In this document: one piece after another, positions 2,614 through 14,256 of the stretch
Position numbering within the stretch: the first letter of the stretch is position 1
Layout of the letters: each line of letters begins with the position of its first letter
IMG/VR virus record: IMGVR_UViG_2529293240_000014
Source: a virus
Taxonomy: Duplodnaviria; Heunggongvirae; Uroviricota; Caudoviricetes
DNA length: 14,579 nt
Direction: 5' to 3' (one strand)
Notes under the pieces: model-generated
Database searches by the model: none
Told to the model about the DNA's origin: nothing
Seen by the model: only the letters and a program-made list of their open reading frames with translations
Position numbers and translations under genes: made by a program

Positions 2614-2621
2614 TGAAGTGG

Positions 2622-3790
<1,169 letters not shown>

Positions 3791-3862
3791 TGGAGCACCT
3801 GTGTTGTTCTGAGGTGAGCATATCACCTCTGTTCAGGTGGCCAAATTCAGTGTGCCACTTCA

Positions 3863-4296
3863 CGGCTACCGTCCGGATAAAAATGCTCGGTGTAAAATCC
3901 GGCCTGAATGGCTACCCACTCGCGGAAAGCCTCAAACGACTTTAGCAAAGCCGTATCACGGGTTCTGCGTGTCGCAACTGTATTCAGATATTGCTCTGCG
4001 GCTTCGCTCAGAGCTGGCGTATGTTCCCGGCCTACTGATTCACACAGGTAATCAACGAAACCGGACACCAGTTTTCGTTCGCGAGGCGTGATCGCCCCAC
4101 CGACCGGAGTCCAGTAATCGAAACCCAGTTGCAGGAGTTTGAAAAAACGCTTGTGGAATGCGTAGTTACGCACACGCTTAAAGTCTGCGTGTATCCACTC
4201 ACCTATTTTGATTTGATGCAGAAAATCGCAACTCTCCGGCGTCGCCGGGAGAAGTAATCCGGAAGAGGTTTGTTTGACCAGTTGTATATGTGCCAT
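3863..4296 (-). pseudogene. YbcN-like (DUF1367) gene, 5' fragment interrupted by IS911
   Basis: ATG at 4296 preceded by GGAGAAAG. Translation MAHIQLVKQTSSGLLLPATPESCDFLHQIKIGEWIHADFKRVRNYAFHKRFFKLLQLGFDYWTP... resembles DLP12 YbcN; the frame runs into the IS911 end at 3862. Confidence 0.75.
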
Positions 4297-4334
4297 CGGC
4301 TTTCTCCGGTGGCACGGTGTTACACAGCAGGAGT

Positions 4335-4622
4335 TCAATCCTGCTCAAGATTGTAGATGAGTTTATTCTTCAGCAAAAGCAGAAAACCAGCCTTAAAACC
4401 AATCTCTTTCAAAACCCGTAATGATGTGACAAATTCGTCCTCACGCAAAATAAAACCGTCCGTCAGAAGTCCATTACAAAAATAAAATAACACAGCACCG
4501 CTCTTCCTTTGTTGAGATTGCAAACATCTAATGCGGCAATGGCTGACAATCGCTCCATTCTCAACGCGCACAGCATAGAGGCTATTTTCACTAAAAATTT
4601 CACGCAATTCTTCGATTTTCAT
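4335..4622 (-). CDS. Hypothetical protein, 95 aa, unknown function
   Basis: ORF with start at 4622 preceded by GGAAGGA. No family recognised by eye. Sits between the hok locus and the ybcN-like gene. Confidence 0.5.
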   Translation of the reverse strand: MKIEELREIFSENSLYAVRVENGAIVSHCRIRCLQSQQRKSGAVLFYFCNGLLTDGFILREDEFVTSLRVLKEIGFKAGFLLLLKNKLIYNLEQD

Positions 4623-4871: not shown

Positions 4872-5027
4872 TTACTTCCTGGATTCGTAGTCTACGAAGA
4901 CAGCGACCTCCGTCTGGCCGGTTCGGATTCGTACCTCACAGAGGTCTTTCCTCGTTACCAGCGCCGTCACTATGACGGTTAAACAGATGACGATCAGGGC
5001 GATTAACATCGCCTTTTGCTGCTTCAT
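4872..5027 (-). CDS. hok: Hok/Gef-family type I toxin (HokD/RelF-like), 51 aa
   Basis: Translation MKQQKAMLIALIVICLTVIVTALVTRKDLCEVRIRTGQTEVAVFVDYESRK: single TM helix plus conserved C-terminal Hok motif. ATG at 5027 preceded by AAGGAG. In-frame upstream ATGs at 5054 and 5084 give a mok-like overlapping frame. Confidence 0.85.
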   Translation of the reverse strand: MKQQKAMLIALIVICLTVIVTALVTRKDLCEVRIRTGQTEVAVFVDYESRK

Positions 5028-5034
5028 AGCCTGC

Positions 5035-5105
5035 TTCTCCTTGCCTTTCGGCATGTAAGAGGCTAACCTACATGTGCAAAGCATGAAATTGGCCTCAGAT
5101 TAATG
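5035..5105 (+). ncRNA. Putative Sok-like antisense RNA opposite the hok/mok translation-initiation region (inferred, boundaries approximate)
   Basis: Inferred from hok/sok architecture: the antisense regulator lies opposite the mok start (5054-5084). A possible plus-strand promoter is TTGCCT (5041-5046), 17 nt, TAACCT. Not directly demonstrable. Confidence 0.25.
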
Positions 5106-5254
5106 TTAAGCGTCTTGCCGGACGCGTAATGTTAACTGGGGCTTTTCTCTATCTGCCTTTTGGTGTTCATGCCTGAAGCAGATAGCCTCAAGCACCCGCA
5201 GTCATTCTACTTACCTCGCCAATATGAAATCAATCAGAAAGGTGCCCCATAAAA

Positions 5255-5941
5255 TCACTCCTTCTCTTCTTTACCGTAGTGGAGTTGACCAATTTTGATA
5301 AGAGGGCGTCCCTGAGATTTGCGGTGTAGATTGGTATCGCGCAGAGAATACACACAGCCACAATATTCCTGCTGATAGAATTTTTCGCGCTTGCTGATTT
5401 CAATCATACGGGACGAGCCGCCCTGCTTGCGCCAGTTATAATCCCAGTACACCATGCCCGGATAATGCGCGACGGCTCGCCGCCCACAGTCGTTAACCTG
5501 CTGCATATTTTTCCAGCGAGAAATGCCCAGTGAACTGCTGATCACACTGAAACCATTTTCAGCGGCGTACAGCGCTGTCCGCTCAAAACGCATGTCAAAA
5601 CACATGGTGCAACGGATCCCTCGTTCGGGCTCCCATTCCATTCCTTTGGCTCGTTCAAACCAGTTGTCTGTGTCGTAATCAGCATCAATAAACGGCACGC
5701 CGTGTTGTTCAGCAAAGCGAATATTCTCATCCTTACGAATTAAATACTCTTTCTGAGGATGAATGTTCGGGTTGTAGAAAAAGATGGTGTAGTCGATTCC
5801 CGAGGCCTGAAGCGCCTCCATCACCTCACCGGAACATGGAGCACAGCAAGAGTGCAGTAGTAGTTTGTTTGCCCCGTTTGGGAGCTCCAATTTGGGCCGT
5901 TTGAAATCAGCAACTGTCATAAATATGTTTATTGGGGTCAT
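5255..5941 (-). CDS. queH: QueH-like epoxyqueuosine reductase (DUF208 family), 228 aa
   Basis: Translation has the DUF208 hallmarks: [11 protein letters not shown] near the N-terminus, [23 protein letters not shown], and C-terminal QEYCGCVYS. No obvious SD before either candidate start (5941 or 5920). Confidence 0.8.
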
Positions 5942-6088
5942 AAAAATATCAAAGAGTGTAGCATTAGAACGGGGCTATCGGAAACAGATGTGTGACTGCT
6001 CCCCGCCCTTTCGGGCGGTCTCCTGATGATTTGAGGGTGCAGAAATCCCTCCGGTTAAGGATTAAATTTTTAACAGTGCTAAATTTAA

Positions 6089-6445
6089 TTATTCAGTTCT
6101 GGATTTTGTCGCCCTGCGTATCCGCGCTTTCGCGTTACGCTCAATCTGTATCAGCTTTTCTATATTTCTCCGCCTTTCCTGTTCCTCCTGGCGCAATAGC
6201 CTTACATCATCTGCCAGTCTGGTTTCTCTTTTTGCCACAGAGAGCATCCAGTCAAACGGCTCCACAACCGCACCGCAGATTTTACAGCGGACCTGACGCT
6301 CTTTTTCGTCAACCCGTACAGAGGCGTGATGGCAATATGGTCTTTCCGATGGCTCATAAAGAAAATTAACCTGATTACGAGGGTCATCCTCTTTTATCGG
6401 AAATAAAACGATATTGCTTAACTCATCTTCTGGTTTTATTTCCAT
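6089..6445 (-). CDS. Hypothetical protein, 118 aa, putative zinc-ribbon plus basic coiled-coil tail
   Basis: ATG at 6445 preceded by AGGAGAGGAG. Translation MEIKPEDELSNIVLF...PYCHH...CKICG...; C-terminus rich in R/E/K/Q. Sits in the lambda ninB position; no family recognised. Confidence 0.55.
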   Translation of the reverse strand: MEIKPEDELSNIVLFPIKEDDPRNQVNFLYEPSERPYCHHASVRVDEKERQVRCKICGAVVEPFDWMLSVAKRETRLADDVRLLRQEEQERRRNIEKLIQIERNAKARIRRATKSRTE

Positions 6446-6502
6446 GCTCCTCTCCTTTGATGCGAATGCCAGCGGTAATTGAAGCCTGATAGCTAATTTC
6501 AT

Positions 6503-6925
6503 TCACAGTATCGCCTCCTGAAAATTACCCTGATAGAAAGCCAGTACACGCTGCATAGCTTCGCTCTTCCGGCACTCGCGACAGATTATATTCAGGCGCC
6601 TGTCGTAGCGGCGTATTTCTCCGTCAGGTAATGACCAGATAAGGTCCGGATCAACAACAACCGGTTTCCTCACCTTTACTCTCGAGAGTTTTTTGCGGGC
6701 GCTTTGCCAGTCCTTGCGAGCCTGTTCAGACGGGAATAAGCCGTAGCCAGAATTATATACATCACCACTTGCGACCAGTTCTATGCATAAGCGACCGACA
6801 GACGCACGACTGATACCTGTTTCATCGGACAACTGCCGAATCGTGACCCGACCGTCCTGATGCACGAGTTCCACAATTCGCGTCTTCAGTTCTTCCCGCT
6901 GTTCGGGAGTAAAAGGTTTCGCCAT
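6503..6925 (-). CDS. Ren-like protein (lambda Ren family, extended), 140 aa
   Basis: ATG at 6925 preceded by AGGAGG. HTH-like segment TIRQLSDETGISRASVGRLCIELVASGDV and C-terminal motif CRECRKSEAMQRVLAFY resembling lambda Ren (KECRQSAAMKRVLAVY). Position immediately after the DnaC/P-like gene. Confidence 0.6.
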   Translation of the reverse strand: MAKPFTPEQREELKTRIVELVHQDGRVTIRQLSDETGISRASVGRLCIELVASGDVYNSGYGLFPSEQARKDWQSARKKLSRVKVRKPVVVDPDLIWSLPDGEIRRYDRRLNIICRECRKSEAMQRVLAFYQGNFQEAIL

Positions 6926-6939
6926 AAATCCTCCTGAAA

Positions 6940-7686
6940 CTACTTAACAACCCTCGAATGGCTAACATTCGGACGCCAGCTCTCCCAGTTAAAATTCACC
7001 CAGCGCCCGCCGTTCATGACCATGCGATCCATCACCCGCTCGCCGAGCAATGTTTTCATCACCTCATAGTTCAGGTTTGTCAGCATCCCCACGCTGCGCA
7101 TCGACGCTGTCCGGCGATCAACAATCTGGTGCAGCACCACCTGCTCGTTTTTCGTCTCGCGCTGAATGCCAATTTCATCAAGAACCAGCAGATCCACTTC
7201 GCACAGCTCCCGCAAAAATTTTTCGCCTGACTGCCCGTCGTCATAGCTGGCGTGCAGGGCGCTCATAACATCAGCCACGGTAACCACAATCACTGTCTGA
7301 CCGTCTTTCAGCAGGCGATTCCCGATAGCTGCCGCTAAGTGATTCTTCCCGGTACCAGGTTTTCCGCTGAACGCAAAATTTGTACACCCGGTCATCAGTT
7401 CATCGGCGATGGATTTCGCCTGGCTTAACGCGTATCGCTGGCCGTCGTTCTGCACCTGGTAATTCGCAAACGAGCATTTACGGTGCAACGGCTGGATGCC
7501 TGAGCGATTCAGAATTTTTTCCACCCGCAACTGGCGATTCAGGCGGTTGATCTCCTCGCTACGTTTCTGGCCTTCAGCAAGTTGCCACTCGCGCCACTCC
7601 GCTACCGTTCTGAATGGGGCGGTTACATGTGGCGGGGTCAGTCGGCGGATGCGTTCCAAAACGCCGCCTGTCGCAATATTTTTCAT
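6940..7686 (-). CDS. DnaC-like replicative helicase loader (IstB-like AAA+ ATPase), 248 aa
   Basis: Walker A FSGKPGTGKNHLAAAIGNRL and Walker B DLLVLDEIG; overall DnaC-like. Start lies 4 nt after the upstream gene's stop. Confidence 0.9.
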   Translation of the reverse strand: MKNIATGGVLERIRRLTPPHVTAPFRTVAEWREWQLAEGQKRSEEINRLNRQLRVEKILNRSGIQPLHRKCSFANYQVQNDGQRYALSQAKSIADELMTGCTNFAFSGKPGTGKNHLAAAIGNRLLKDGQTVIVVTVADVMSALHASYDDGQSGEKFLRELCEVDLLVLDEIGIQRETKNEQVVLHQIVDRRTASMRSVGMLTNLNYEVMKTLLGERVMDRMVMNGGRWVNFNWESWRPNVSHSRVVK

Positions 7687-7692
7687 GGTCCG

Positions 7693-8475
7693 TTACCCCC
7701 TGAAGCCTGGCGGGATCGCACTGTCCGGCAACGAGACGGTGTTAACCTGTCGGAGCAACGTCTCAGGCCGAACACCTTTCGGCGCGAACAGGCCCTGGTA
7801 TTCATTGGCGATGCTGTGTCGAATCACCTGCTCAGGTGTAAAACCCTGCTGACGGAATTTTTCCAGTTCCCGTATCGCCCCGTTAGCGCCCTGCTCCGTT
7901 CGAATCGGTTTTCGCAATGCCTGTCTGAACCGGACCCACTCATGCCAGAGTGTTTCCGGCAACCAATCGGGCAGCTCAATAGCCTCCGGCTCGAATTTTT
8001 TAGACGCTCGTTTTTGGCGAGGGGGATTTAGGGGGAGATCAGTATTTAGATCTTCCTCTTCCTCTGGTAACGCTTTTTGATCCGTTTGTGTAACGCTGGC
8101 AGCGTTACCTTTTCGTTTCAGTTCGCGTATTTTTGTTACTCGCTCGTTTGTAACCGCCCGTTTTTTAGAGCTTTTTCCGTTATGACGTTCAAAGTTAGGT
8201 AGAGAAAGCCCACCGTCATTTTCGACCAGCCATCCAACCTGAATTAACGCATCAGCAAAACCAGACATAAAAGTGATGCGATCTATTGCACTTTTTGTAA
8301 CGCCGCGAGCGTTACAATCTGCATTACCGTCTATCATTTGTTGATCCGCCCATGCCCAGAAGCGAATAACCTTCCCTAATGCGGCATCTGGATCAATATT
8401 CAGAATCTCAGCAAGCCTGAATATTTCCGGCTTATCCGGCGTAATAACCTCGAGCTTTATCCAGTTTGAAGCCAT
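7693..8475 (-). CDS. Phage replication initiation protein (YdaU-like, DUF1376; lambda O position), 260 aa
   Basis: ATG at 8475 preceded by AAGGTGA. Lies between the YdaT-like and DnaC-like genes; carries internal palindromic iteron-like repeats. Confidence 0.7.
   Translation of the reverse strand: MASNWIKLEVITPDKPEIFRLAEILNIDPDAALGKVIRFWAWADQQMIDGNADCNARGVTKSAIDRITFMSGFADALIQVGWLVENDGGLSLPNFERHNGKSSKKRAVTNERVTKIRELKRKGNAASVTQTDQKALPEEEEDLNTDLPLNPPRQKRASKKFEPEAIELPDWLPETLWHEWVRFRQALRKPIRTEQGANGAIRELEKFRQQGFTPEQVIRHSIANEYQGLFAPKGVRPETLLRQVNTVSLPDSAIPPGFRG
8089..8108. repeat. Palindromic iteron-like site TGTAACGC-N5-GCGTTAC, copy 1, inside the replication gene
   Basis: tgtaacgctggcagcgttac is a perfect 19-bp dyad. 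Flanked by half-sites (gtaacgc at 8067-8073, tgtaaccgc at 8149-8157) and an AT-rich stretch at 8110-8170. Confidence 0.5.
8296..8316. repeat. Palindromic iteron-like site TGTAACGC-N5-GCGTTACA, copy 2
   Basis: tgtaacgccgcgagcgttaca; 8-bp arms exact reverse complements. Confidence 0.5.
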
Positions 8476-8552: not shown

Positions 8553-8975
8553 TCAATGCACTACGACAGAATCGCCGGGCGACCCACCACCGCTGAAATG
8601 TGCTTTCCGGTAAACGGCCTGGACAGCATCATCATGCGCATCAATTGCCGTACTCAACGCTTCCTGCGCCGCCAGTAATGCACGGCGTTCCAGGGTATCG
8701 AAGATACAGAGTCGGTGACGCAGCTCACGCGGAAGAATTGCCAGAACCGCAGGGATCAGTTTCTGAATTTTTTCCCTTTGCGCTTTCGTTTCACCTTTCA
8801 ACCAACGGTGATAGATATTCTGCTGATTGTTCCAGTCCTTGCCTGGTACCAGAGACAATTCGCCGCCCCCCTGCCGCAGATATTCTTCAGTAATTGCGTT
8901 AGCGACCCACGCCTGCCCTTTTTCGGCTGCCAGGGCTAACAGCACTGATTCGATGTGCTCATGCCTGATTTTCAT
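8553..8975 (-). CDS. YdaT-like protein (Rac prophage family; lambda cII position), 140 aa
   Basis: ATG at 8975 preceded by AAGGTG. Translation MKIRHEHIESVLLALAAEKGQAWVANAITEEYLRQGGGELSLVPGKDWNNQQNIYHRW... matches my recollection of Rac YdaT. The 5' end overlaps the upstream cro-like gene by 17 nt. Confidence 0.6.
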   Translation of the reverse strand: MKIRHEHIESVLLALAAEKGQAWVANAITEEYLRQGGGELSLVPGKDWNNQQNIYHRWLKGETKAQREKIQKLIPAVLAILPRELRHRLCIFDTLERRALLAAQEALSTAIDAHDDAVQAVYRKAHFSGGGSPGDSVVVH

Positions 8976-9186
8976 GAATCACCTTCCCAGGTCGTTTTGC
9001 CTTACGATATTCGTCATAAACTTTGGGGTCGTACTGAAGTTCCCCGCCAGATGCCTCTTGCAGGCGCATCGCGCGACCTTCAGGAACCAGTTCCCCCCAT
9101 GCAGCAATGCTTGCCAGCCTAACTCCTGCGGCATTGGCAAGCTTTGTTTTGCTGCCAAAAAACGCTATAGCATCAATTTTCAACAT
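8959..9186 (-). CDS. Cro/YdaS-like small HTH regulator, 75 aa
   Basis: ATG at 9186 preceded by AAGGAG. HTH-like segment KTKLANAAGVRLASIAAWGE. Transcribed divergently from the repressor gene. Confidence 0.7.
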   Translation of the reverse strand: MLKIDAIAFFGSKTKLANAAGVRLASIAAWGELVPEGRAMRLQEASGGELQYDPKVYDEYRKAKRPGKVIHENQA

Positions 9187-9262: not shown

Positions 9263-9670
9263 ATGAAAAACGAAACCTTCGGTGCTCGCCTCTTACATAG
9301 GCGTAAAAAATTAAAACTGTCTCAGGCCGCATTAGGTAAGCTGGTCAAAGTGGCTCACGTAACAATTTCTCAATGGGAAAGAGATGAAACACAGCCGGCG
9401 GGGAAAAGATTATTCGCACTGAGCCAAGCGCTTCAGTGCTCACCGACTTGGCTTCTTTTTGGGGATGAAGATAAACAACCAGGCGAACCGATCCCGGATA
9501 ATCAGCCAGCCATTCTGACAGAAGATCAAAAAGAGTTACTTCAACTGTTCGACGCACTGCCTGAGTCAGAGCAAAAGGCCCTGTTGTCAGAGATGCGTGC
9601 TCGAGTTGAAAATTTCAACAAACTTTTTGAAGAACTACTCAAAGCTCGCAAAAGAAGCGCAAACAAATAA
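9263..9670 (+). CDS. CI/RacR-like prophage repressor (XRE-family HTH, no peptidase domain), 135 aa
   Basis: N-terminal HTH LKLSQAALGKLVKVAHVTISQWERDETQP. Divergent from the cro-like gene. No SD, so possibly a leaderless or weakly initiated message as for lambda cI from PRM. Confidence 0.8.
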   Translation: MKNETFGARLLHRRKKLKLSQAALGKLVKVAHVTISQWERDETQPAGKRLFALSQALQCSPTWLLFGDEDKQPGEPIPDNQPAILTEDQKELLQLFDALPESEQKALLSEMRARVENFNKLFEELLKARKRSANK

Positions 9671-10463: not shown

Positions 10464-10474
10464 TGGATTTGCCC

Positions 10475-11380
10475 CTATATTTCCAGACATCTGTTATCAC
10501 TTAACCCATTACAAGCCCGCTGCCGCAGATATTCCCGTGGCGAGCGATAACCCAGCGCACTATGCGGATGCCATTCGTTATAATACTCGAACGCCTCTGC
10601 AAGGTTCTTTGCTGCCGTTAACCCGTCTGGTTTGGGCATGATACTGATGTAGTCACGCTTTATCGTTTTCACGAAGCTCTCTGCTATTCCGTTACTCTCC
10701 GGACTCCGCACCGCCGTGTTCTTCGGTTCAAGTCCCAACATCCGGGCGAACTGGCGTGTTTCATTAGCCCGGTAGCATGAACCATTATCCGTCAGCCACT
10801 CCACTGGAGACGACGGAAGATCGTTGCCGAAGCGGCGTTCCACCGCTCCCAGCATGACGTCCTGTACTGTTTCACTGTTGAAGCCGCCGGTAGTCACCGC
10901 CCAGTGCAGTGCCTCACGATCACAGCAGTCCAGCGCGAACGTGACACGCAGTCTCTCTCCGTTATCACAGCAGAACTCGAACCCGTCAGAGCACCATCGC
11001 TGATTGCTTTCTTTCACGGCCACTCTGCCTGTATGTGCCCGTTTCGATGGCGGTACAGCAGGTTTTCGCTCAAGCAACAGCGCATTCTGGCGCATGATCC
11101 GGTAAACACGTTTGGCATTGATCGCAGGCATACCATCAAGTTCTGCCTGTCTGCGAAGCAGCGCCCATACCCGACGATAACCATACGTGGGCAGCTCTCC
11201 GATAACATGGTGTATACGGAGAAGCACATCCGTATCATCAGTGTGACGACTGCGGCGGCCATCCATCCAGTCATCGGTTCGTCTGAGAATGACGTGCAAC
11301 TGCGCACGCGACACCCGGAGACAACGGCTGACTAAGCTTACTCCCCATCCCCGGGCAATAAGGGCGCGTGCGCTATCCAC
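10475..11380 (-). CDS. insD: IS2 transposase InsD (OrfB), 301 aa
   Basis: Translation [59 protein letters not shown]... is IS2 InsD; overlaps insC as expected for frameshift-fused OrfAB. Confidence 0.92.
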
Positions 11381-11703
11381 TTTTTTGCCCGTCCATATTC
11401 AACGGCTTCTTTGAGGAGTTCATTTTCCATCGTTTTCTTGCCGAGCAGGCGCTGGAGTTCTTTAATCTGCTTCATGGCGGCAGCAAGTTCAGAGGCAGGA
11501 ACAACCTGTTCTCCGGCGGCCACAGCAGTAAGACTTCCTTCCTGGTATTGCTTACGCCAGAGAAATAACTGGCTGGCTGCTACACCATGTTGCCGGGCAA
11601 CGAGGGAGACCGTCATCCCCGGTTCAAAGCTCTGCTGAACAATTGCGATCTTTTCCTGTGTGGTACGCCGTCTGCGTTTCTCCGGCCCTAAGACATCAAT
11701 CAT
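11338..11703 (-). CDS. insC: IS2 InsC (OrfA, HTH transposase subunit), 121 aa
   Basis: Start at the [56 protein letters not shown]... Met (11703); the track's upstream extension lacks an RBS. Confidence 0.9.
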
Positions 11704-11794
11704 CTGTTCTCCAATGACTAGTCTAAAAACTAGTATTAAGACTATCACTTAAATAAGTGATACTGGTTGTCTGGAGATTCAGGGGGCCAGTCTA

Positions 11795-11836: not shown

Positions 11837-12354
11837 ATTCATTTCCTTACTGGTTGTGTGAGAACTTCAGTAAAGATACCACCAAAGCCCGGAGGTGGTG
11901 AAATAAAACCGGGCACAACACGAAGGCGCATTTCCGGTATCCATAAAGAGTCGGTCTTGTCTGTGAAATTTAAATGGTGGGAGTGCGCTTCCGGTTGTAA
12001 ATAACGACATTGCTGTGTGAAGTACCAGTTGGCGGCATCGGTTTAATTGCTGGCTGATGTCCGCCCTTTTTAAAGTGAATTTTGTGATGCGGTGAATGCG
12101 GCTATGCGCACGCGGCACAGTTAAAAGTCATGTTAGTCCTTATTGGTTTGGGTGGGAAAGCCAACTGTAATTGTTAACTGGTTAACGTCACCTGGAGGCA
12201 CCAGGCACCGCATCAACAAAGTTCACTTCGGTGATGAAAGGAAAGAGAAAATGTTGAATGTAGCTATTGAAAACCAGAACGGGTGGAATTATAGTGCACC
12301 TGCACCTCATAAAACGGGTGCCGGGATTGCTACCCCGACGATGACTACTGCGCA

Positions 12355-12378
12355 TAACCGCGCTCAGGCGGTTTTTTT
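12355..12378 (+). terminator. Terminator-like hairpin plus T-tract inside the Rha upstream extension (possible attenuator)
   Basis: AACCGC-gctcag-GCGGTT followed by TTTTT. Lies between the strong upstream RBS/ATG (12251) and the Rha-domain start (12545). Confidence 0.3.
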
Positions 12379-12544
12379 ATGCGTCAAGCACAGCCACATT
12401 CAGATTATGGTGGGGCGTGCAGGGCAGCCGCAAGGCTGGCCGGTTTCGGTAGTCACCGGTTGTAGCAACCCTGTGCGTCTCACCACCCATGAGATTGCTA
12501 CCTCTGGTGGTGAGTTATTTAAACTGACTATCGAGGCTGCCATC

Positions 12545-13099
12545 ATGGCTACTATCCTTACCCTTTCTCACCCTGACGTAACCATCGAAAATGGTCGCGC
12601 TGTCACTACGTCTGTTGCGGTTGCGGAGTTCTTCCGGAAAATGCACAAAAACGTTATTCAGAAGATCGAAACTCTCGAATGCTCGCCGGAGTTTAACCGG
12701 CTTAATTTTAAGCCCGTCACCTATACCGACGCCAAAGGCGAAAAACGCCCAATGTACCAAATCACCAAAAACGGCTTCGTTTTCCTGGTGATGGGCTTCA
12801 CTGGCAAAAAAGCCGCCGCATTCAAGGAAGCCTACATTGCTGAGTTCGACCGCATGGAGGCCGAACTGCGCCAGAATAACACCCCACCTGCTGACAAGAT
12901 GATTCCGGGTGATGGTCGCACTCTGGTTGTTCACTTCGACAAATTCGGCAATGTCGAATTCACCGAAACCGTTCCTGATGGCGCACTGGTCTGTACCCTG
13001 GAGACTTTCCGGTTTTATCTGGAAAAACAGGGATGGACTCTTGTTAACCGGGGCGCAATTAAAAATATGACTGTGGAACAATTACTTTCTTTAAAATAA
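12545..13099 (+). CDS. Rha-family phage regulatory protein; start ambiguous (12545, or 12251 with a 98-aa N-terminal extension)
   Basis: Rha-domain motifs AVTTSVAVAEFFRKMHKNVIQKIETL...KRPMYQITKNGFVFLVMGFTGKKAAAFKEAYIAEFDRME. ATG at 12545 preceded by GAGG; the in-frame ATG at 12251 has a stronger AAGGAAAGAG site. Confidence 0.7.
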   Translation: MATILTLSHPDVTIENGRAVTTSVAVAEFFRKMHKNVIQKIETLECSPEFNRLNFKPVTYTDAKGEKRPMYQITKNGFVFLVMGFTGKKAAAFKEAYIAEFDRMEAELRQNNTPPADKMIPGDGRTLVVHFDKFGNVEFTETVPDGALVCTLETFRFYLEKQGWTLVNRGAIKNMTVEQLLSLK

Positions 13100-13503: not shown

Positions 13504-14007
13504 TTACTGATAGTGTTTTATGTTCAGATAATGCCCGATGACCTTGTCATGCAGCTCCACCGATTTTGAGAACGACAGTGACTTCCGTCCCAGCCTTGCC
13601 AGATGTTGTCTCAGATTCAGATTATGTCGCTCAATGCGCTGAGTGTAACGCTTGCTGATAACGTGCAGCTTTCCCTTCAGGCGTGATTCATACAGCGGCC
13701 AGCCATCCGTCATCCATACCACGACCTCAAAGGCCGACAGCAGGCTCAGAAGACGCTCCAGTGTGGCCAGAGTGCGTTCACCGAAGACGTGCGCCACAAC
13801 CGTCCTCCGTATCCTGTCATACGCGTAAAACAGCCAGCGCTGACGTGATTTAGCACCGACGTAGCCCCAATGTTCGTCCATTTCAGCGCAGACAATCACA
13901 TCACTGCCCGGTTGTATGCGCGAGGTTACCGACTGCGGCCTGAGTTTTTTAAGTGACGTAAAACCGTGTTGAGGCCAACGCCCATAATGCGTGCACTGGC
14001 GCGACAT
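13504..14007 (-). CDS. insB: IS1 InsB reading frame (normally expressed as the InsAB' frameshift fusion)
   Basis: ORF translation ...[54 protein letters not shown]... is IS1 InsB. Confidence 0.9.
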
Positions 14008-14201
14008 CCGACGCCATTCATGGCCATATCAATGATTTTCTGGTGCGTACCGGGCTGAGAGGCGGTGTAAGTGAACTGTAGTTGCCATGTTTTACGGCAA
14101 TGAGAGCAGAGATAGCGCTGATGTCCGGCAGTGCTTTTGCCGTTACGCACCACGCCTTCAGTAGCGGAGCAGGAAGGACATCTGATGGAAATGGAAGCCA
14201 C
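13926..14201 (-). CDS. insA: IS1 InsA, 91 aa (GTG start)
   Basis: Translation (V/M)[42 protein letters not shown]... with GTG start 56 nt from the IS end. Confidence 0.92.
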
Positions 14202-14256
14202 GCAAGCACCTTAAAATCACCATCATACACTAAATCAGTAAGTTGGCAGCATTACC

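Follow-up and report, generated by a model that had tools for sequence, protein, structure and literature searches.

The window, by which we mean the whole 14,579-nt stretch of DNA that was analyzed, is an IS-riddled, defective prophage that carries an intact accessory gene and is otherwise ordinary. On its minus strand, at 6089–6445 (stop included), lies an open reading frame (ORF) of 357 nt, which translates into 118 amino acids followed by a stop codon and would code for an uncharacterized early phage protein with a zinc ribbon and a basic helix, similar to WP_001343130.1 and placed in PHROG 1621. A prophage of 99.8% identity has this 357-nt CDS in its RefSeq annotation, where WP_001343130.1 is a "hypothetical protein." As read from the letters, a Shine-Dalgarno (SD) element, AGGAGAGGAG, stands at 6447–6456 on the same strand, and in the minus-strand sequence around the start, AAAGGAGAGGAGCATG, the first AGGAG lies 6 nt 5′ of the ATG at 6445. 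An earlier sequence-only reading of this DNA had called a 118-aa ORF with a strong ribosome-binding site, and the translation and the SD element bear out both parts of that call. Behind the ORF comes a spacer (5942–6088) and behind the spacer queH (5255–5941, minus strand), which codes for epoxyqueuosine reductase (PF02677, Pfam E = 1.9e-65) and which we treat as an independent neighboring module.

A shuffled early gene and its relatives

Judged by sequence comparison, the ORF is a genuine, strongly conserved prophage gene, because its dN/dS is 0.06 over 50 alleles and because homologs occur across the Enterobacterales. A homolog search found 148 of them, and those in Klebsiella, Kluyvera, Serratia, Erwinia, Yersinia, Salmonella, and Pluralibacter are 45–72% identical, with C38, H40, C54, and C57 invariant. 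Conservation in related prophages was the test that the sequence-only reading had set for the ORF, and the ORF is kept there.

In Rac/lambdoid-type prophages, the ORF is an early gene that is shuffled autonomously. Of 5,426 complete E. coli genomes, 1,498 contain the ORF region, and Stx2a-converting phages and ArgO145 carry the ORF as well; a locus search with alignment A1 returned near-identical loci only. Neighbors vary on both sides, with DUF977, Ead/Ea22 genes in the exo-xis region, or NinG upstream and DUF7167, a 70-aa ORF, HNH-region genes, YlcG, or queH downstream, and distant members of the family, which have small early genes of unrelated phages around them, show no constant partner. 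In the window, the gene next to the ORF had been taken for a Ren-like gene; the adjacency stands, and the gene itself is identified as DUF977. The further idea that the ORF replaces ninB is contradicted by its varied positions in other phages and by a NinB-like DUF1367 gene (PHROG 319), interrupted by an IS, at 3847–4338. Because the window keeps this gene of its own downstream, the ORF is not a ninB substitute, and the NinB/DUF1367 models give no match for the ORF itself. What the ORF shares with lambda NinB/DUF1367 and lambda Ren is the general neighborhood downstream of the replication genes, without any sequence relation.

PHROG 1621, whose annotated function is unknown and to which PHROGs 8538 and 4865 are related, matches residues 1–117 of the protein over profile positions 1–120 of 134 (E = 6.4e-56, 188.6 bits). 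Among representative clusters at 50% identity, at least 1,593 match at E ≤ 1e-3 and share the signature of the superfamily. These sequence matches make the ORF a member of PHROG 1621 and, beyond it, of a far larger family of small early phage proteins that has no name. The sole Pfam hit is Zn_Ribbon_TF (PF08271), which stays below threshold (21.5 bits against a cut-off of 29, E = 1.6e-4), and 8 of 53 relatives give comparable sub-threshold matches. Apart from such zinc-ribbon and coiled-coil noise, no Pfam, NCBIfam, or PADLOC family was found for the ORF or the 53 relatives, and PADLOC-DB held zero families at E ≤ 0.1 for the ORF. Searches of PDB sequences with the single sequence and with a profile gave nothing below E = 0.03 and coiled-coil noise only, and a Foldseek search with the AF2 model was uninformative, its best match being the TFIIB N-terminal ribbon at E = 0.34. 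The earlier statement that the protein falls in no recognized family therefore survives the Pfam, NCBIfam, PADLOC, PDB, and fold searches, none of which gave anything useful. A profile built from the distant members alone led to unnamed proteins only, and weak DUF6118 hits in two distant members were uninformative. Longer homologs are fused solely to Ead/Ea22 or DUF977, which are the upstream neighbors, and these fusions probably reflect overlapping genes or frameshifts. We found no paper on the protein in the literature, and the Ea22 and exo-xis modeling papers do not cover it.

Architecture of the protein and its candidate ligands

The 118-aa protein is made up of an acidic N-terminal tail, a CxH...CxxC zinc ribbon, and a 55-residue helix. 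Structure prediction had been proposed as a check by the sequence-only reading, and the AF2 monomer model (mean pLDDT 74.7, pTM 0.39 as a whole) has both the zinc-ribbon strands and the long helix. The tail (residues 1–35) is acidic with a net charge of −5 and is modeled at low confidence, with block-mean pLDDT of 50–70 over residues 1–40. Within it, alignment A1 and the AF2 model delimit a motif, E-L-x-N-V-V-x-F-P, at codons 8–16 (6398–6424, minus strand), in which, over A1, F15 and P16 do not vary and conservation reaches at least 90% at E8, L9, and N11; F15 is retained in 66% of the distant family members.

The ribbon, placed by the alignments and AF2 at codons 36–62 (6260–6340, minus strand), has the CHCC ligands C38, H40, C54, and C57 and is followed by D/E-P-F-D. 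Across the 53 distant members in alignment A2, C38, C54, and C57 are each conserved in 100% and H40 in 98%. The cluster that had been noticed as C-H-H...C-x2-C is thus present as C38-H39-H40 and C54-x2-C57, with its ligands invariant or nearly so; H39, unlike these four, is not conserved among homologs. Strands at 43–46 and 51–54 in the AF2 model give the generic zinc ribbon fold, with four conserved ligands in two knuckles flanking a β-hairpin, and metal binding is predicted from the sequence and the model. An HNH nuclease was ruled out, since H39 is not conserved and no HNH hit was obtained.

Codons 63–118 (6092–6259, minus strand) form a single long helix, as delimited by AF2, conservation, and charge. 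The model has one helix over residues 63–117, with mean pLDDT of 90–94 at residues 81–110, and residues 63–118 contain 16 K+R and 10 D+E, which upholds the highly charged C-terminal helix of the earlier description. In the superfamily alignment, the helix end, L98-x-[KR]-x-E-[KR]-N-x-K-A-R-x-[KR]-x-A, is basic and nearly invariant, as are the last ~20 helix residues (ERNAKARIRR) of the ORF protein, and "NIEKLIQIERNAKARIRR" in this helix is almost invariant across the Enterobacterales; the segment at codons 63–118 has a charge of +6 and a pI of 11.1. A bZIP basic region was considered and rejected, as its N-x2-AA-x2-[CS]R spacing does not fit N104-A-K-A-R108. Residues 77–112 show a moderate heptad pattern, and in the best register of the helix 10 of 16 a/d positions are hydrophobic. 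Because E74, E88, R91, and E102 occupy core positions, oligomerization through these heptads is only plausible.

If these parts work together, zinc would hold the small ribbon in shape, the helix would form a dimer or higher oligomer through its heptad-patterned part, and the invariant basic helix end, possibly with the ribbon, would clamp a ligand that is identical in all hosts. Across genera, conservation covers every face of the helix end, with variation in the tail and ribbon loops, a pattern that fits a ligand common to all hosts and not phage-specific operators. We rate nucleic acid, whether DNA or RNA, as the most likely ligand, at odds somewhat short of even. A conserved host protein machine, such as RNA polymerase, the replisome, the ribosome, or the divisome, is rated next and would be a tentative choice; were such a machine bound, the phage would be making, early in lytic growth, a factor for host takeover or modulation.

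Among small early phage proteins, many have host proteins and not nucleic acid as their ligands. A stricter form of the host-directed explanation would have the NVVxFP motif, the invariant helix, or both inhibit a conserved host protein (RNA polymerase, a replisome component, FtsZ/divisome, RecBCD, or a defense protein), with no nucleic-acid binding at all, so that the protein would serve in host takeover or anti-defense. The ORF does occupy variable early regions (after the replication genes, exo-xis, and nin) where accessory genes cluster, it has no fixed phage partner gene, its low-confidence tail carries a short conserved linear motif, and the conservation of the helix on all faces extends across hosts. 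Yet no PADLOC model or named family was matched, and conservation is strongest at N, K, and R within a segment of pI 11, which is more typical of nucleic-acid contacts. We consider this form rather unlikely.

A broader and still less probable proposal takes the at least 1,593 clusters at 50% identity that share the CxH...CxxC ribbon, DPFD, and a helix ending in L-x-[KR]-x-E-[KR]-N-x-K-A-R as one very large, unannotated pan-phage superfamily, represented in E. coli by the ORF. This superfamily would be a new class of early effector that reprograms the cell, an oligomer of zinc-ribbon, "reverse bZIP-like" type with a grip on nucleic acid or on a host machine that is conserved universally. As a weaker addition to this proposal, the protein could also act on the GNRA hairpin cassette that often comes after it. 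The gene is present in about a quarter of sequenced E. coli genomes, Shiga-toxin (Stx2a) prophages among its carriers, and the wider family occurs in many unrelated phages. For a gene for which we found no name, domain model, structure, or literature, finding the ligand of the invariant basic helix would annotate thousands of "hypothetical" phage genes and could reveal a further means of host manipulation that temperate phages use soon after induction.

The spacer, its portable cassette, and queH

The spacer measures 147 bp if queH starts at the ATG at 5941, an alternative to the start that RefSeq places at 5920. Most of it is a portable intergenic cassette (6003–6088, minus strand) that is common to many lambdoid prophages, with or without the ORF upstream, and the segment 6003–6108 recurs by itself behind other genes in E. 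coli prophages. Its first part (6033–6052, minus strand), delimited from variant sequences and folding, combines an SD sequence (SD1, GGAGG, 6048–6052) with a weak hairpin (hairpin 1, GAGGG/CCCTC, 6033–6051) whose folding energy, −7.2 kcal/mol (z = −1.3), does not by itself set it apart from chance. In other phages, as seen in variant sequences and the annotation of L004 and L005, a 70-aa ORF (MLNTQK...) has its ATG 7 nt after SD1. The second part (6003–6024, minus strand), delimited by folding and conservation, is another SD sequence (SD2, AGGAGA, 6019–6024) followed by hairpin 2 (CCGCCC-GAAA-GGGCGG in gene sense, 6003–6018), a 6-bp GC stem with a GAAA loop whose RNA folds at −14 kcal/mol (z = −3.5 against shuffles); the fold of the whole spacer is not unusual (z = −1.6).

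Hairpin 2 is retained in all 91 non-redundant phage contexts that make up our cassette set, with a loop of GAAA or GGCA. Across these contexts, 95.1% of stem cells are paired, and most changes in the stem turn C into U, leaving a G-U pair in the sense-strand RNA (14 cells versus 7 unpaired). The sequences compared are closely related, and they contain one-sided wobbles only, with no compensatory double substitutions in the stem; since no covariation is seen, the structure of hairpin 2 rests on conservation and energy.

The sequence-only reading had described a 147-bp spacer with two hairpins that lack U-tracts and had considered them unlikely to be terminators, and both points hold. A terminator scan called no terminator-like site in 5942–6088 on either strand, and the tails after the hairpin, GGAGCAGUCAC in gene sense and UCUCCUGAUGAUUU on the opposite strand, lack the U-tract of an intrinsic terminator, so this identity was rejected for a hairpin that is otherwise suitably GC-rich. 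A lambda-type nut site was rejected as well, because no boxA-like CGCUCUU(U)A is found 5′ of the hairpin in the window or the variants, and an SD sequence takes the place that boxA would occupy. Rfam gave no match in 5942–6445 even at E ≤ 1; its hits elsewhere in the window are sok, C4, isrK, and tRNAs.

What the cassette contexts have in common is their geometry. AGGAG(G/A), a 16-nt hairpin, 6–9 nt, and an ATG follow one another in constant order; a start codon lies 2–11 nt (mode 7) 3′ of hairpin 2 in 80 of the 91 contexts, at least 8 unrelated genes are served, and the cassette variants have no further SD between stem and ATG. In the usual setting, SD2 and the GNRA-loop hairpin stand just 5′ of the start codon of the next gene, where hairpin 2 would cut an SD-AUG distance of ~23 nt to ~7 nt, by analogy with phage T4 genes 38 and 25. 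In the window, SD2 directly abuts hairpin 2, but the next start codon, the queH ATG at 5941, is 61 nt away. As far as sequence and fold can tell, SD2 and hairpin 2 are here a split ribosome-binding site without a start codon, with a putative translational role.

A different account of hairpin 2 would give it a main role in transcript processing or stability, or would make it a factor-dependent terminator comparable to lambda tR2 behind ren, or a conserved recombination "linker" with no function in RNA. Three features would suit such an element: the stable, GNRA-capped GC stem stands at module boundaries, the 3′ end of hairpin 2 is exactly where mosaic junctions fall, and no compensatory covariation was seen. 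The missing U-tract, the constant SD-hairpin-ATG geometry in front of at least 8 unrelated genes with no other SD to serve them, and a substitution bias that favors pairing in the sense RNA speak against it, and we consider it improbable.

Another account would join the cassette to the protein, with the ORF product as an RNA-binding translational regulator of the adjacent GNRA hairpin, the two together forming one protein-RNA module that controls whatever gene comes next. The cassette does follow the ORF in ~53 of the 91 contexts, and an arginine-rich helix end beside a GAAA or GGCA loop on a GC stem is superficially like N-boxB pairs. However, at least 6 other upstream genes precede the cassette in the remaining ~38, the cassette occurs without the ORF nearby in L006 and L007, a Klebsiella phage homolog and metagenomic distant homologs directly abut their next gene with no cassette-sized gap, and there is no boxA-like element 5′ of the hairpin. 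This leaves direct recognition of the hairpin by the ORF protein very improbable.

Returning to the split ribosome-binding site, its orphaned state in the window is understandable from what follows it. A by-eye alignment of the window with the queH modules L218 and L219 delimits a 50-nt queH leader (5942–5991, minus strand) that is conserved with queH modules behind other upstream genes, and comparison with the same modules and with the cassette variants leaves an 11-nt junction, GGAGCAGTCAC in gene sense, at 5992–6002 (minus strand) between cassette and queH module. The leader contains an 8-codon mini-ORF (5938–5964) whose stop overlaps the queH ATG (ATGA). No promoter or terminator was called in it, and a queH promoter was rejected, the spacing of the −35-like and −10-like hexamers also differing between variants. 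The queH module, with its own leader, has been joined right behind hairpin 2, and because it stands in place of the cassette's gene, the SD-hairpin is left an orphan. The spacer is a mosaic joint and not a queH regulator; of the earlier suggestion that the hairpins are regulatory, the part concerning queH falls, and what remains is reinterpreted as a portable cassette that normally supplies the ribosome-binding site of another downstream gene.

The sequence-only reading had gone further and considered that the ORF, in the place of ninB, could make up a single accessory module with queH; spelled out in full, this explanation would include the structured spacer and would give its hairpins control of queH. 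In its favor, all three parts lie side by side on one strand, both in the window and in two near-identical E. coli genomes, and no terminator separates them. The genomic-context comparison that the sequence-only reading had called for finds ORF and queH separately elsewhere: the DUF977-ORF-queH arrangement occurs in 2 of the 5,426 complete genomes, against 1,498 with the ORF region alone, and queH modules without the ORF occur in many prophages. Because the adjacency is this rare, ORF and queH are not one module. In addition, the cassette precedes other genes in 88% of contexts, queH carries its own conserved leader, and the NinB-like DUF1367 gene is present downstream. The distribution has already largely refuted the single-module explanation, to which we attach next to no probability.

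Our best overall explanation, to which we assign a probability of roughly 0.4, is that the locus combines an autonomous early protein with a zinc ribbon and basic helix and a portable cassette orphaned by the arrival of queH. If this explanation holds, the spacer can serve as a testable case in which a ribosome-binding cassette of SD, hairpin, and AUG, itself portable, sits at the gene-swap joints of lambdoid phages and links translation control with mosaic genome evolution.

Comparison with known systems

The closest similarities of the protein in Pfam, PDB, and Foldseek are to TFIIB/TFB N-terminal and ribosomal S27e-type ribbons (PF08271, PF01667), with which it shares a four-ligand ribbon and a CxxCG knuckle after a β-hairpin, and all of them lie below curated thresholds (21.5 versus 29 bits; Foldseek E = 0.34). 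Those ribbons have C4 ligands, whereas the ORF has C-x-H / C-x2-C, and its ribbon sits between an acidic tail and a single 55-residue basic helix without cyclin-fold or ribosomal contexts. TraR, lambda Orf73, and DksA, zinc-finger proteins of small size from lambdoid early regions, bind RNA polymerase (PMC8614690). Like the ORF product, they are small early proteins that combine an acidic N-terminus with a zinc site of four ligands and a helix at the C-terminus, and the exo-xis region is sometimes common to both. However, TraR and DksA are C4 proteins with a DxxDxA tip, and the order and length of their helices differ from those of the ORF protein; with CHCC ligands, no DxxDxA, and no PF01258 hit in the ORF or the 53 relatives, a TraR/DksA identity was rejected. 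Ea22 C-termini finish in K/RGE, unlike the ORF protein. As for PHROG 1621, the gene is already catalogued in RefSeq as a hypothetical protein, and no Pfam, NCBIfam, or PADLOC model or solved structure was matched to the family.

For the cassette, the nearest parallel is the split initiation regions of phage T4, in which a hairpin reduces the SD-AUG distance from 22 to 5 nt for gene 38 and from 27 to 11 nt for gene 25, according to the account in PMC3014915 of Nivinskas et al. (1999), cited there. The likeness is that of an SD and an AUG that stand too far apart (~23 nt here) until a stable hairpin draws them together, which in the cassette would give an effective ~7 nt. The difference is that the SD-hairpin described here is portable and serves many unrelated genes at lambdoid mosaic junctions, in what by analogy would be the same putative role, and that the window copy lacks a start codon and is hence an orphan.

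Lambdoid phages also have "linker" sequences at mosaic boundaries, known from the comparative literature of the HK620/HK97 era. Like these, the cassette is a short conserved intergenic sequence between unrelated modules with recombination joints at its edges; to this it adds an RNA-level architecture of SD, GNRA hairpin, and AUG.

An uncharacterized gene in a defective prophage

The 118-aa ORF (357 nt, 6089-6445 on the minus strand, with AAAGGAGAGGAGCATG upstream of its start) is a widespread, uncharacterized phage accessory gene, present here as an intact copy inside a defective, IS-ridden prophage. RefSeq lists the same CDS as WP_001343130.1, a "hypothetical protein." Judged from its sequence it is a real gene, with a median dN/dS of 0.06 at a dS of 0.14 among 50 distinct intact alleles from the fetched loci. 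Its region is present in 1,498 of 5,426 complete E. coli genomes (at least 80% coverage), mostly at ~95% identity, and also in phage ArgO145 and Stx2a-converting phages. Full-length homologs with 45-72% identity occur in Klebsiella, Kluyvera, Yokenella, Salmonella, Serratia, Erwinia, Pluralibacter, and Yersinia, and when 1.8 billion cluster representatives were searched with a profile, 1,593 clusters scored E ≤ 1e-3. None of the proteins retrieved by homology searches has a name, and the sole family membership found is PHROG 1621 (function unknown, E = 6e-56). Pfam has no family for the ORF, Zn_Ribbon_TF alone matching at 21.5 bits, below its cut-off of 29; no NCBIfam or PADLOC model matches, solved structures include no relative, fold searches gave no informative match, and no paper about the protein was found in the literature. 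The sequence-only reading was right to recognize no family, and its sequence statements (the ORF, C-H-H...C-x2-C, the spacer hairpins, and their absent U-tracts) were all correct on re-reading. A family without a function will not surprise phage specialists, given that PHROGs of unknown function are the majority; this one merits a DUF entry.

The genes near the ORF all lie on the minus strand, in the early-right region of a Rac/lambdoid-type prophage. From a plus-strand repressor-like gene (9263-9670) the minus strand runs through a Cro-like gene (8959-9186) and a YdaT/CII-like gene (8553-8975), all three assigned by PHROGs, to a replication initiator (7693-8475, PHROG 2509), a DnaC/YdaV-like loader (6940-7686), DUF977 (6503-6925, "Ren-like" in PHROGs), the ORF, a 147-bp spacer (5942-6088), queH (5255-5941; PF02677, E = 2e-65), sok/hokD (4872-5197), a PHROG 340 ORF (4335-4622), an IS-cut, NinB-like DUF1367 gene (3847-4338), and a Q-like antiterminator (1604-2278). 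Downstream of the latter are 4 tandem tRNA genes (1108-1414), annotated as Ile, Arg, Thr, and Gly in a near-identical RefSeq prophage. The locus directly downstream of queH is a complete hok/sok type I toxin-antitoxin locus (sok RNA, 117 bits; Hok/Gef, E = 1e-22, with a mok-like extension).

In the parts they share, the window and a prophage of E. coli FDAARGOS_944 are 99.5-99.8% identical; that prophage is without 2 IS insertions present here (2614-3860 and 10464-11794), whose flanks share 5 bp in this reference, consistent with target duplications. The first, an IS3-family element of ~1.25 kb (orfA 3488-3826, orfB 2622-3461), splits the DUF1367/NinB-like gene, and the second, also of the IS3 family (1,331 bp, IS2-sized), lies left of the repressor gene; the 2 insertions indicate that the prophage is defective. 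A transposase ORF (PHROG 720, 167 aa) with adjoining small ORFs close to the window's right end (13504-14230, minus strand) is probably a third IS copy, suggesting a host rich in IS elements, for instance Shigella or a comparable E. coli lineage. At 12302-12490 on the plus strand, isrK (61.5 bits) and C4 antisense RNA (75.7 bits) both score above the Rfam threshold side by side, overlapping or leading a Rha/anti-repressor-like gene (12143-13099); the arrangement resembles an antisense-controlled anti-repressor module of the P1/P7 immI type (or the Gifsy IsrK-AntQ type). DicF-like (12016-12066) and STnc100-like matches just upstream are weak and sub-threshold.

Architecture and possible ligands of the protein

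The protein contains C38-H39-H40 and C54-x2-C57. An AlphaFold2 model with 26 homologs as input (mean pLDDT 74.7) has a low-confidence tail at residues 1-40 (block-mean pLDDT 50-70), short strands at 43-46 and 51-54, and a single helix at 63-117, with a mean pLDDT of 90-94 across 81-110. Net charge is −5 in the tail and +6 in the helix (pI 11.1), whose heptad pattern is moderate (a/d hydrophobic at 10 of 16 positions). Residues F15, P16, C38, H40, C54, C57, and F64 are kept in the genera with full-length homologs, as is the near-invariant stretch LRxEExxRRxNIEKLIQIERNAKARIRR, while 53 distant members (23-51% identity) have the signature C-x-H...R...C-x2-C-G...D-P-F-D...L...L-x-[KR]-x-E-[KR]-N-x-K-A-R-x-[KR]-x-A. 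A putative four-ligand zinc site is conserved, and all faces of the basic helix end are conserved across genera and beyond.

If the protein works as this architecture suggests, zinc would stabilize the ribbon, the helix would oligomerize, and the invariant end, rich in N, K, and R, would bind a ligand shared by all hosts, either alone or together with the ribbon. DNA operators specific to a phage should differ from one phage to another, so the conserved helix end points to another kind of ligand. The reading we favor, at a probability of roughly 0.4, is nucleic acid, whether bound generically or as DNA or RNA of a specific structure; a universally conserved host machine is an only slightly less likely candidate. 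For the N-terminal NVVxFP motif, a docking peptide is one possible role and completion of the ribbon as a strand is another.

Position of the ORF and its relation to queH

In E. coli the ORF comes after DUF977. Elsewhere the end of an Ead/Ea22-like gene runs into it, either behind the replication genes or within the exo-xis region; in many phages (for example, loci L003, L005, and L092) this 3' overlap is 23 nt. In a Klebsiella phage it sits between ninG and ylcG/Q, and in Serratia, Enterobacter, Cronobacter, and metagenomic phages amid unrelated small early genes, with downstream neighbors that differ too. Fusions of the protein involve only its upstream neighbors Ead/Ea22 and DUF977. Database entries of 254-264 aa (P0121, P0257, and P0263) that join an Ead_Ea22 domain to it may reflect real gene fusions, frameshifting, or errors in sequencing.

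Since its neighbors vary, a "ninB position" is not a property of this gene, and the earlier proposal that it replaces ninB is not supported, the window having its own NinB-like DUF1367 gene. The proposed accessory module of ORF and queH fares no better: DUF977-ORF-queH is the order in 2 of 5,426 genomes, and queH lies directly behind DUF977 or a methyltransferase remnant in many others, which argues that ORF and queH are independent mosaic modules. Prophage-borne queH (epoxyqueuosine reductase; also at loci L218 and L219) is very common among E. coli prophages, the searched 1.75-kb region matching 3,916 of 5,426 genomes, a figure that takes in DUF977 and ydaV matches. The queH slot elsewhere holds a methyltransferase remnant, and at L218 a gene annotated as Kiwa KwaB-like comes after queH; this slot could be a hot spot for accessory or defense genes.

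The spacer cassette and known systems

Downstream regions from 85 ORF-carrying loci, together with the conserved segment itself in 91 non-redundant contexts (loci L002-L177), show 6003-6088 to be a portable cassette, found where lambdoid prophages have mosaic gene junctions. In gene sense it starts TTAAATTTAGCACTG...AATCCTTAACCGGAGG, with a first Shine-Dalgarno sequence (SD1) at the end of this stretch. One variant set has the ATG of a 70-aa ORF 7 nt after SD1; in the window GATTTCTGCACCCTC comes after SD1 and pairs with it as the weak hairpin 1 (6033-6051; −7.2 kcal/mol, z = −1.3). Next come SD2, CATCAGGAG(G/A), and hairpin 2 (6003-6018), CCGCCC-GAAA-GGGCGG, which folds at −14 kcal/mol (z = −3.5) into a GC stem of 6 bp, free of mismatches, that closes a GAAA loop in gene sense; SD2 and hairpin 2 together span 6003-6024. 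Across contexts AGGAG(G/A) abuts a 6-7-bp GC stem, and in 80 of 91 a start codon 2-11 nt past it (mode 7) opens one of at least 8 unrelated genes. The stem-to-ATG interval holds no other SD, and the SD2-ATG distance is ~23 nt unfolded and ~7 nt with the stem formed. Among 24 hairpin haplotypes 95.1% of stem cells are paired, with 14 one-sided G-U wobbles against 7 unpaired; the wobbles are mostly C-to-U, which on the opposite strand would give A-C mismatches, and loops are GAAA or GGCA, seldom UAAA. These haplotypes include no compensatory double changes, so the structure is backed by conservation, energy, geometry, and strand bias rather than covariation.

The gene upstream of the cassette is the ORF in ~53 of the 91 contexts and another gene in ~38, and at loci such as L006 and L007 no ORF is nearby. 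The ORF protein might be an RNA-binding regulator of the GNRA hairpin that adjoins its gene, but gene and cassette occur independently, which makes this role unlikely.

In the window the cassette stops exactly at the 3' side of the stem, and 11 nt of junction (5992-6002, minus strand) separate it from the queH leader (5942-5991, minus strand), which is conserved in queH modules behind other genes and a different hairpin. The window's hairpins would thus be relics of another gene's ribosome-binding region, and the SD-hairpin here reads as orphaned, a relic and not a queH regulator. They had been taken for regulatory elements rather than terminators: the second part is borne out, with no U-tract at either hairpin and no terminator-like site called in the spacer, whereas a regulatory role toward queH is disfavored by a cassette that serves other genes and a queH with its own leader. 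No SD is recognizable at either candidate queH start (5941 or 5920). An 8-codon mini-ORF in the leader, MLHSLIFL* (5938-5964, minus strand), stays in frame, with amino-acid changes, in 2 diverged leaders (L218 and L219); its stop overlaps the queH ATG (ATGA), which could be translational coupling or chance.

Among known families, the ORF is not NinB, the NinB-like gene here (DUF1367, 3847-4338) lying elsewhere, and TraR/DksA, HNH, and known defense proteins were each rejected; as a TFIIB-type zinc ribbon it misses the curated threshold. For the cassette the comparison is with T4 genes 38 and 25, where an SD-hairpin-AUG arrangement has been shown experimentally (PMC3014915). The window's copy lacks the defining trait of that split initiation region, a start codon close by, but in relatives the cassette spacer appears to have the same layout.
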